DNA of 360 nucleotides from Escherichia coli (GTDB taxonomy: Bacteria > Pseudomonadota > Gammaproteobacteria > Enterobacterales > Enterobacteriaceae). The position numbers and the translations under genes were made by a program. Below, one piece after another: positions 1-360 of this stretch. The notes beneath the pieces were generated by a model. It was not told the origin of the DNA. It saw nothing but the letters and a program-made list of their open reading frames with translations, and ran no database searches. The stretch is from NCBI RefSeq assembly GCF_003334765.1, contig NZ_QOWT01000130.1; one strand, written 5' to 3'. How positions within the stretch are numbered: position 1 is the first letter of the stretch; every line of letters starts with the position of its first letter.

Positions 1-76
1 CCCGAGCGGCCAAAGGGAGCAGACTGTAAATCTGCCGTCATCGACTTCGAAGGTTCGAATCCTTCCCCCACCACCA
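1..76 (+). tRNA. tyrT: tRNA-Tyr (anticodon GUA), 3' 76 nt of an ~85-nt class II tRNA; the 5' 9 nt lie upstream of the window
   Basis: Seen in sequence: anticodon stem gcaga (19-23) / tctgc (31-35) around the 7-nt loop ctgtaaa (24-30), anticodon gta at 26-28; long variable arm 36-48; T stem gaagg (49-53) / ccttc (61-65) with T loop ttcgaat (54-60); acceptor 3' strand ccccacc (66-72), discriminator a73, encoded cca 74-76. Variable arm reads gtcatcgacttc, which I recall as the tRNA-Tyr1 form. The symbol tyrT is an inference from the recalled operon order (tyrT upstream of tyrV). Confidence 0.93.
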
Positions 77-82
77 TAATTC

Positions 83-98
83 ACCACAGCGATGTGGT
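83..98 (+). other. Small hairpin 7 nt downstream of the copy-1 CCA: 6-bp stem with a GCGA (GNRA-type) tetraloop
   Basis: Seen in sequence: accaca (83-88) is the reverse complement of tgtggt (93-98); loop gcga (89-92). No U tract follows, so it is not an intrinsic terminator. Any role in processing is inference. Confidence 0.4.
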
Positions 99-150
99 AA
101 CTTCGGTGAGATTGTGAAAGTTTGCACTCATCGGGGAAGGGTGAGAACCT

Positions 151-165
151 TCGACTAAGGTTCGA
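151..165 (+). repeat. Degenerate copy of the tRNA variable-arm/T-arm region
   Basis: Seen in sequence: spacer tcgact (151-156) matches tRNA 41-46, and aaggttcga (157-165) matches tRNA 50-58, in the same order with a 3-nt deletion (tRNA 47-49 tcg) between them. That is 15 matched positions over an 18-nt tRNA segment. It lies about 68 bp upstream of the 19-nt 3'-end copy, so the spacer looks like a diverged partial tRNA duplication with inserted sequence. Confidence 0.5.
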
Positions 166-185
166 TTCGAGCGAAAGCGAGAGAA

Positions 186-202
186 CGTTGCCACAGGCAA
201 CG
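186..202 (+). other. Inverted repeat / hairpin: 7-bp stem with a 3-nt loop
   Basis: Seen in sequence: cgttgcc (186-192) is the reverse complement of ggcaacg (196-202); loop aca (193-195). No U tract follows. Function unknown. Confidence 0.35.
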
Positions 203-232
203 GCCCGAAGGGTGAGGAGCGAAGCGACGAAT

Positions 233-251
233 AATCCTTCCCCCACCACCA
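233..251 (+). repeat. Exact 19-nt copy of the tRNA-Tyr 3' terminus (aatccttcccccaccacca) inside the spacer
   Basis: Seen in sequence: 233-251 is identical to 58-76 (last 3 nt of the T loop, T stem 3' strand, acceptor 3' strand, discriminator and CCA). It is not preceded by the rest of a tRNA, so it is a 3'-end fragment, not a third gene. Confidence 0.9.
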
Positions 252-285
252 TCTCAAGCATTACCTCAAAATTTGAATTACCCCT

Positions 286-360
286 GGTGGGGTTCCCGAG
301 CGGCCAAAGGGAGCAGACTGTAAATCTGCCGTCATCGACTTCGAAGGTTCGAATCCTTCC
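286..360 (+). tRNA. tyrV: tRNA-Tyr (anticodon GUA), 5' 75 nt; the last ~10 nt including CCA lie downstream of the window
   Basis: Seen in sequence: 286-294 ggtggggtt supplies the acceptor 5' strand plus positions 8-9, and ggtgggg is complementary to the ccccacc acceptor 3' strand seen in copy 1. Bases 295-360 are identical to 1-66. Anticodon gta at 320-322. The symbol tyrV is an inference from being the downstream copy. Confidence 0.93.

Follow-up and report, generated by a model that had tools for sequence, protein, structure and literature searches.

The tyrT-tyrV segment of Escherichia coli K-12: two identical tRNA-Tyr(GUA) genes and an RtT unit in their spacer

The 360-nt stretch of Escherichia coli DNA analysed here (the window) carries two tandem copies of a tRNA-Tyr(GUA) gene, tyrT and tyrV, separated by a 209-nt spacer. 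We consider it very probable that the window represents the central part of the tyrT operon of E. coli K-12, in which two identical tRNA genes flank a spacer bearing an RtT RNA unit, and that the account of processing and recombination given below applies to it. The locus is already known, and nothing contradicts this identification. The spacer had been treated as anonymous in an earlier reading of the same DNA (the original prediction), and it holds an annotated full-length RtT RNA unit (Rfam RF00391; PGAP). Sequence comparisons among enterobacterial loci support well the conclusion that spacer-type RtT units form an old lineage, which is distinct from the distal RtT repeats downstream of tyrV and is conserved across genera of Enterobacteriaceae.

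The tRNA genes and the spacer unit

A repeat search of the window showed that positions 1-66 recur at 295-360 with 100% identity and a spacing of 294; in so short a sequence, chance falls far short of explaining a 66/66 match. The original prediction had taken these repeats for identical tRNA-Tyr(GUA) genes on the same strand with a 294-bp period, a reading that extends to the whole of both genes, tyrT and tyrV being identical across all 85 nt. The window runs from nucleotide 10 of tyrT to nucleotide 75 of tyrV, and the promoter and distal repeats lie outside it. Because its ends cut both copies (the first lacks 9 nt at its start, the second 10 nt at its end), ARAGORN called no tRNA when given the window alone. 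Covariance model RF00005 (Rfam tRNA; gathering score 29) does call both positions, with 35.1 bits on window 1-73 for the 5′-truncated copy and 35.7 bits on window 286-360 for the 3′-truncated copy. In the extended locus, ARAGORN calls both copies as complete 85-nt tRNA-Tyr genes with the anticodon gta at position 35. Cloverleaf folds at both positions, the anticodon GTA and a long variable arm, seen in the 85-nt length and in an 11-nt variable-region insertion in the Rfam alignment, identify these as bacterial class II tRNA-Tyr(GUA) genes. The 3′ end on which the original prediction had staked its second copy is present as CCTTCCCCCACC-A-CCA (CCCCACC-A-CCA), and positions 2852-2870 of the extended K-12-type chromosome region used for annotation (L001, 100% identical to the window) read AATCCTTCCCCCACCACCA. 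Further Rfam hits to sX4, Plastid-psbI-rps4 and a trypanosomatid snoRNA reached only 17-19 bits, where the gathering scores are 47-70, and were rejected as chance matches driven by the T-arm motif GGTTCGAATCC.

The window was compared by megablast with 5,426 complete E. coli genomes. K-12-type chromosomes, including MG1655 and W3110 derivatives, match all 360 nt at 100%, at approximately 1,287,254-1,287,613 on the minus strand, and 1,657 chromosome records of finished E. coli genomes, many independent K-12 assemblies among them, match the whole window at ≥99%. In the annotated K-12-type region, the tRNA-Tyr pair has purU upstream and narI downstream. Both sequence identity and synteny thus bear out that the window belongs to the tyrT-tyrV locus, and the view of the original prediction that this is a known locus rather than a novelty was correct. 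The doublet is known from classical genetics as the su3 (supF) locus. Downstream of tyrV lies a tandem repeat, 3.1 copies of a 178-bp unit with 95% matches. This is the '178 bp repeated 3.14 times' for which tyrT is classically known and which Egan and Landy reportedly described in 1978.

The 209-nt spacer consists of a 56-nt linker, a 119-nt RtT core and the 34-nt leader of tyrV. A second direct repeat, AATCCTTCCCCCACCACCAT, is 20 nt long and occurs twice with 100% identity at a spacing of 175 (Table 1). Window 233-251 is identical to window 58-76, and the RtT unit therefore repeats, at its own 3′ end, the final 19 nt of the tRNA. This 19-mer closes every tRNA-Tyr gene and every RtT unit of the K-12 locus, where it occurs six times with spacings of 175, 119, 178, 178 and 178. 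The 294-bp period is accordingly the sum of 175 (56 of linker and 119 of RtT core) and 119 (34 of leader and 85 of tRNA).

Assignment of the spacer unit to the RtT family rests on several features. The RF00391 model (gathering score 45) matches window 120-251 with 132.9 bits and an E-value of 1.5e-29 over model positions 1-130 of 130. The unit lies downstream of a tRNA-Tyr gene, has a conserved secondary structure and ends in a single-stranded tail, CACCACCA, of the same sequence as the tRNA-Tyr 3′ end. The spacer RNA is predicted to fold with a minimum free energy (MFE) of -62.1 kcal/mol (z = -3.18). We also observed 86% complementarity between the 5′ strand of the RtT core, GGGGAAGGGTGAGAACCTTCGA at window 133-154, and the upstream tRNA, whose T arm and acceptor 3′ strand lie there at 47-68; the downstream tRNA copy, at 341-360, is complementary to this core strand as well. 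In the precursor, the strand could therefore pair with the T arm of either tRNA and not with the 3′ strand of the core.

Spacer-type and distal RtT units

The RtT core motif was used in a pattern scan of species-representative genomes, which yielded 102 loci that were annotated with ARAGORN and nhmmer. These loci come from Citrobacter, Enterobacter, Klebsiella, Salmonella, Kosakonia, Leclercia, Pantoea, Serratia, Xenorhabdus, Sodalis and other genera, and they follow a modular grammar. Every RtT core comes after a tRNA-Tyr gene or after another RtT, with a linker of 52-61 nt between, and the rule that RtT lies downstream of tRNA-Tyr and closes with a copy of its 3′ end is kept in all the examined loci of other genera with visible upstream context. 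Most loci also have a leader of 25-40 nt before a downstream tRNA-Tyr gene, with or without an RtT unit in front of it. Writing Y for tRNA-Tyr and R for RtT, approximately 29 loci are Y-R-Y like the window, and ~42 of the ~71 tRNA-Tyr doublets in other species are Y-Y with a short spacer, mostly of 22-82 nt and in one case of 132 nt.

RtT units located between two tRNA genes (internal units) share their linker across ~20 genera, in the form TTATTCACCACAGCGATGTGGTAAC...GATGAG...GCACTTATC. A 47-pair structure was evaluated over 28 distinct internal units from ~20 genera, and 98.3% of its cells are paired. Compensatory changes occur in 16 pairs, as compared with 5.2 +/- 1.6 in column shuffles (none of 500 reached 16) and 1-7 in slid controls. 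The linker hairpins take part in this covariation, which affects 5 of the 6 pairs of helix 1 and 3 of the 6 pairs of helix 2. Covariation in the RtT family has also been reported in the CaCoFold paper.

The internal cores resemble one another across loci more closely than they resemble their distal neighbours. Between loci they are 92.6% identical, whereas identity to the distal cores of the same locus is only 85.8%, and the nearest neighbour in another locus is an internal unit for 29 of 30 internal units. Eight core positions are diagnostic for internal versus distal units (window 141, 148, 183, 185, 203, 213, 218 and 231). The core helices are all retained in both classes. However, 86% of distal units carry a G.G mismatch in the middle of helix H4 and 72% carry A.C at the first pair of H7, whereas both helices are fully paired in the spacer type. 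The distal units within one locus are 98.3% identical, which points to recent duplication or homogenisation. We found no published description of a subdivision into spacer and distal RtT units in a literature of which our coverage is incomplete.

The linkers of the two types also differ in composition. In distal linkers the fractions of C and G are 0.313 and 0.109, as compared with 0.217 and 0.212 in internal linkers; the difference C minus G is 0.205 for distal and 0.005 for internal linkers, and is lower for the internal type at 26 of the 28 loci that hold both. Predicted MFE per nucleotide is -0.253 kcal/mol for internal and -0.045 kcal/mol for distal linkers. When the K-12 locus is read in 78-nt segments, the C/G ratio reaches 4.3-5.0 at each distal junction and is at most 2.25 throughout the tyrT-tyrV spacer. 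The distal linkers, outside the window, resemble a Rho utilization (rut) site in composition and in their predicted lack of structure. No rut-type tract (unstructured, C-rich and G-poor over ~70-80 nt) was found in the spacer, given this C/G ratio and the predicted structure of its linker. Rho-dependent termination was reportedly placed within the distal repeats of tyrT, downstream of tyrV, by Kupper et al. in 1978 and Rossi et al. in 1981. From composition and predicted folding we infer that the distal linkers may be Rho-loading tracts, and that a unit would persist between two tRNA genes only if its linker is not such a tract.

These features raise the possibility that spacer-type RtT is a separate class of structured RNA, defined by a two-hairpin 5′ extension, paired H4 and H7 and the eight diagnostic positions, that is under purifying selection across Enterobacteriaceae genera and has a function of its own. 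We advance this proposal tentatively and think it rather less than probable. Candidate functions would include shielding the transcript from Rho between the tRNAs, guiding processing of the precursor that holds two identical tRNAs, or a role as a stable regulatory RNA. On this view, the distal units would be mainly a zone of Rho loading and termination. A role of RtT as a decoy for defence nucleases that target tRNA-Tyr was also considered and is unsupported: rescue from retron-Eco7 depends on a tRNA that is competent for translation and carries the right anticodon (PMC11555353), and RtT lacks an anticodon arm.

Several points weigh against the functional part of our reading. The spacer unit is dispensable: when the spacer was used alone as the query, at least 80% of it was present in 1,921 of the 5,426 complete E. 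coli genomes (~35%), and the other ~65% are without it. A strain that lacks the promoter, tyrT, the spacer and tyrV is viable if tRNA-Tyr function is supplied otherwise (PMC2887954). The internal-versus-distal statistics count related species as independent, and the case for Rho avoidance comes down to composition and predicted folding.

Some of these points favour an alternative in which the spacer unit is functionless, a duplicate left over from the distal 178-bp repeat, carried along between two essential tRNA genes until it is recombined out. Such a unit could be missing from most complete E. coli genomes and from ~42 of the ~71 doublets of other species, could be deleted precisely between the 20-nt repeats and could be lost with the whole of tyrT-tyrV in the laboratory (PMC2887954), and the function of RtT is described in the available literature as unknown or merely suspected. 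A leftover of the distal repeat is difficult to reconcile with internal cores that match each other across genera better than they match distal cores of their own locus, with nearest neighbours that are almost always internal, and with compensatory substitutions well above controls in units whose linker is a separate conserved type. Neutral junk would also not be expected to stay alignable over Escherichia, Klebsiella, Kosakonia, Leclercia and others. We regard the functionless alternative as possible, though doubtful.

Two sets of loci outside E. coli deserve separate mention. Three loci (L008, L070 and L097), with Acerihabitans arboris and Sodalis sp. among their sources, have one or two RtT units after the tRNA-Tyr gene of the thrU-tyrU-glyT-thrT operon, in the order tRNA-Thr(tgt), Y, R, ~142 nt, tRNA-Gly(tcc), tRNA-Thr(ggt). 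RtT therefore tracks tRNA-Tyr and not the tyrT locus in itself. A typical enterobacterial module of tRNA-Tyr, 58 nt and RtT is also found in a record labelled Martelella alba BGMRC 2031, an alphaproteobacterium of the Hyphomicrobiales (NZ_SZPQ01000002.1; locus L050), which suggests that this assembly is mislabelled or contaminated.

Allelic variation and the remaining alternatives

The original prediction had equated the doublet with the known enterobacterial tyrT-tyrV arrangement. The identity of the locus stands, with its 100% match to K-12 and its purU and narI flanks, but the 294-bp period does not describe the enterobacterial arrangement in general: it is a minority allele, its spacer being carried by only ~35% of complete E. 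coli genomes, and most doublets of other species have the short spacer described above. Many other E. coli match only window 233-285 of the spacer. Other E. coli alleles have a spacer of 33-34 nt, one or three tRNA copies, or between zero and three distal RtT units. With spacer lengths given in nucleotides, CFT073 is Y-33-Y-R followed by an accessory cluster, U90 is Y-34-Y-R-R-R, which is the K-12 allele minus exactly the 175-bp unit, and O157:H7 is Y-R-Y-R-R. Strain 23CRST047 has three spacer-type units and three tRNA-Tyr genes; isolate 23 (match H87, locus L108) has one tRNA gene and a locus exactly 294 bp shorter; EC476 has a doublet without any RtT, and THO-015 has one tRNA gene and no RtT.

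These alleles differ by exact repeat units. The alleles of CFT073 (L002) and of locus L003 equal the K-12 allele minus 175 bp, with a 19-mer spacing of 118-119 in place of 175 and 119. The spacer unit was counted exactly over all 5,426 genomes, and locus spans were read from 60 rank-spaced records. They fall at 1431, ~1255, ~1077 and ~900 bp, values that correspond to the length of the K-12 locus less combinations of the 175- and 178-bp units. Recombination between the two 20-nt repeat copies removes exactly the 175-bp unit, and the stepping of natural alleles by exact repeat units supports unequal recombination. The original prediction that unequal crossing-over collapses or expands the array is thereby borne out in both directions, by the single-tRNA allele that is 294 bp shorter, by the exact 175-bp losses and by the three-tRNA allele of 23CRST047. 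Segregation of the su3 doublet to a singlet was reportedly observed by Russell et al. in 1970. In 23CRST047 (L005 1585-2860), the three spacer-type units lie in tandem at a 175-bp period, and the allele also holds two distal units besides its three tRNA-Tyr genes. In the PGAP annotation of this strain, the second tRNA is overlaid by a partial 'hypothetical protein' pseudogene (2295-2384), which is probably an annotation artefact.

The warning that the repeats are a risk for assembly proved equally apt. Draft contigs end inside RtT arrays (L006, L022, L052 and L062), one of which, L022, is a 246-nt contig of RtT alone. Records filed as plasmids (matches H126-H137), some of them 1-5 Mb long, begin or end in RtT and look like chromosomal fragments broken there. 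As the number of tRNA-Tyr genes (1-3) and of RtT copies varies by strain and short-read assemblies break in the repeats, tRNA counts from draft genomes are unreliable at this locus.

A further alternative explains RtT units by site-specific integration at the 3′ end of tRNA-Tyr, as its scars or miniature passengers, with the 19-20-nt repeats as duplicated attachment (att) sites and copy number driven by an integrase rather than by homologous recombination. In its favour, each unit is delimited by exact copies of the tRNA 3′ end, RtT is found after tRNA-Tyr even in the thrU-tyrU-glyT-thrT operon of Sodalis and Acerihabitans, and an accessory cluster of 7 genes adjoins the tRNA/RtT 3′ end in B2-type strains. 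Yet no integrase was found in or beside the locus in K-12, CFT073 or THO-015, and the cluster has no second 19-mer at its far end, the 28 kb of L111 containing a single 19-mer. RtT is virtually absent from phages, where 3 records match and at least 2 of these are contigs of Salmonella genomes that the collection includes; among 72,556 plasmid records, 27 match, all 27 are typed as non-mobilizable and several of those listed look chromosomal. The 98.3% identity of distal units within a locus is also what tandem duplication and homogenisation would give. We consider an integrative origin very unlikely.

We give still less weight to the idea that the spacer encodes a small basic peptide, like the protamine-like tpr open reading frame (ORF) of the first distal repeat. 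That distal unit does have an ATG ORF, MRGRMRSFDQGSTRAPARERCRRQRPEGRSAQR, at L001 2926-3027, but the spacer unit has no ATG at the equivalent place, its sole forward ORF starts with TTG and reads through tyrV, the equivalent ORF is missing from distal units 2 and 3 as well, and substitutions across genera keep base pairs rather than a reading frame. Finally, it is scarcely credible that the duplication is an assembly artefact of a source strain with a single tRNA-Tyr gene here, for although repeats do break short-read assemblies and single-copy alleles occur in nature, the 1,657 finished-genome records match the whole window and the doublet is the long-established su3 (supF) locus.

The coordinates of the features discussed are collected in Table 1. 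In B2-type E. coli (CFT073 and THO-015), 7 genes occupy ~7 kb between the tRNA-Tyr/RtT 3′ end and narI, and they encode a fatty-acid desaturase, a sterol desaturase, a PAP2 phosphatase, an F390-synthetase-related protein, a metallo-beta-lactamase (MBL) hydrolase, an epimerase and a protein like ketoacyl-acyl carrier protein synthase (KAS) III. In the K-12-type region, palindromes resembling repetitive extragenic palindromic (REP) sequences and bacterial interspersed mosaic elements (BIME), GCCCGATGGC...GGGCCTACA...TGTAGGTCGGATAAGCGAAGCGCATCCGAC, lie directly 3′ of the last RtT unit at L001 ~3447-3525, before narI. Sequences termed rtT-like have been tied to BIME/REP repeats (PMC2965389), perhaps because such palindromes adjoin the array; this link probably reflects the REP element downstream of the array and not RtT proper.

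Table 1. Coordinates of features in the window and in the extended loci (window numbering unless a locus is given).
Feature	Coordinates	Strand	Remarks
tRNA-Tyr(GUA) copy 1 (tyrT)	1..76	+	5′-cut; anticodon GTA 26-28; encoded CCA 74-76
Left copy of 20-nt repeat, AATCCTTCCCCCACCACCAT	58..77	+	3′ half of T arm, acceptor 3′ strand and CCA of tyrT, +1 base
Spacer-type linker, 56 nt	77..132	+	Two conserved hairpins
Linker helix 1	83-88/93-98		ACCACA GCGA TGTGGT
Linker helix 2	105-110/127-132		GGTGAG...CTCATC
RtT core, 119 nt, spacer type	133..251	+	Rfam RF00391; PGAP RtT sRNA
RtT core outer stem	134-142/234-242
RtT core inner hairpins	145-151/157-163, 166-172/177-183, 186-192/196-202, 203-206/210-213, 216-220/224-228
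Right copy of 20-nt repeat	233..252	+	3′ end of RtT unit
34-nt 5′ leader of tyrV	252..285	+	C-rich, G-poor
tRNA-Tyr(GUA) copy 2 (tyrV)	286..360	+	3′-cut; anticodon 320-322
purU	L001, upstream flank		PGAP annotation
tRNA-Tyr (tyrT)	L001 2492-2576 = window -8..76		PGAP and ARAGORN
RtT sRNA (ncRNA), spacer	L001 2620-2751		PGAP
tRNA-Tyr (tyrV)	L001 2786-2870 = window 286..370		PGAP and ARAGORN
Three distal RtT sRNAs	L001 2917-3048, 3095-3226, 3273-3404		PGAP
narI	L001, downstream flank	opposite strand	PGAP
B2-type accessory cluster	L002 1832-3052; L109 7344-14225; L111 212-7093		Starts 16 nt after CCA

Proposed expression of the operon and likeness to known systems

A consensus scan of the extended region found a single strong sigma-70-like site upstream of tyrT, TTTACA-16-TATGAT, which agrees with the consensus at 10 of 12 positions (L001 2414-2441). 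The same scan found no promoter-like site within the tyrT-tyrV spacer. The tyrT promoter is described as common to tyrT and tyrV (PMC2887954). In the mechanism that we propose, both genes would be transcribed from this one promoter upstream of the window, with the 209-nt sequence between them as an internal transcribed spacer, and the tandem arrangement doubles the dosage of tRNA-Tyr genes. The precursor would be cut into two tRNAs by ribonuclease P (RNase P) at the 5′ ends, where it would remove the 34-nt tyrV leader, and by an endonuclease followed by exonuclease trimming to CCA at the 3′ ends. By analogy with the 171-nt distal rtT RNA, the spacer may be released as a structured RtT-like RNA of ~170 nt that ends in CCA. 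Its linker, predicted to be structured and not C-rich, would let RNA polymerase reach tyrV without loading of Rho, and the unstructured, C-rich and G-poor distal linkers would fit the zone of Rho-dependent termination that is classically placed downstream of tyrV. In the DNA itself, unequal recombination or slippage has two kinds of substrate, the identical tRNA genes 294 bp apart and the shared 19-20-nt repeats of the tRNA 3′ end, 175 or 178 bp apart, and gives rise to the copy-number alleles.

Re-identification of a classical locus matters little in itself, and natural strains already supply both alleles, with and without the spacer unit. RtT has been without an established function since 1991, and the distinction between a conserved, structured spacer type and a rut-like distal type offers a modest lead.

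The closest known system is the E. coli K-12 tyrT operon itself (tyrT-tyrV-rttR/tpr), which is the same locus with no sequence difference: two 85-nt tRNA-Tyr(GUA) genes 209 nt apart are followed by 3.1 copies of the 178-bp repeat, as here. The spacer unit also has the multi-hairpin fold of RtT RNA (RF00391; gene rttR), closed by GGGGAAGG/CCUUCCCC, and the same tRNA-Tyr 3′ tail. The rttR gene annotated in K-12 is the first distal unit, however, not the spacer unit, and the 56-nt linker of the latter, with its two covarying hairpins, lies largely beyond the Rfam model. The 171-nt rtT RNA that Bosl and Kersten are said to have characterised in 1991, a processing product of the tyrT transcript, likewise comes from a distal repeat unit.

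Spacers of other tRNA operons were reportedly shown by Lalaouna et al. in 2015 to be stable regulatory RNAs, namely the 3′ external transcribed spacer (3′ETS) of glyW-cysT-leuZ and the internal transcribed spacer (ITS) of metZ-metW-metV. Like them, the RtT spacer is a segment of a tRNA precursor that would be released by processing and could persist. The 3′ETS and ITS act by base-pairing as sponges of Hfq-dependent small RNAs, whereas we know of no target, Hfq dependence or sponge activity for RtT, which is far more structured than these spacers and is repeated.

The allelic series has its counterpart in unequal crossing-over within repeated RNA genes such as su3 and the rRNA and tRNA arrays, where identical direct repeats, here 294 bp apart, likewise recombine. 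In E. coli, natural alleles of the tyrT locus have 1, 2 or 3 copies of the tRNA, and each repeat type is present in 0-3 units. What sets this locus apart from such arrays is the nesting of two repeat systems, the 85-nt tRNA and the 19-20-nt tRNA 3′ end common to tRNAs and RtT units, so that units of 175, 178, 119 and 294 bp can each be gained or lost.

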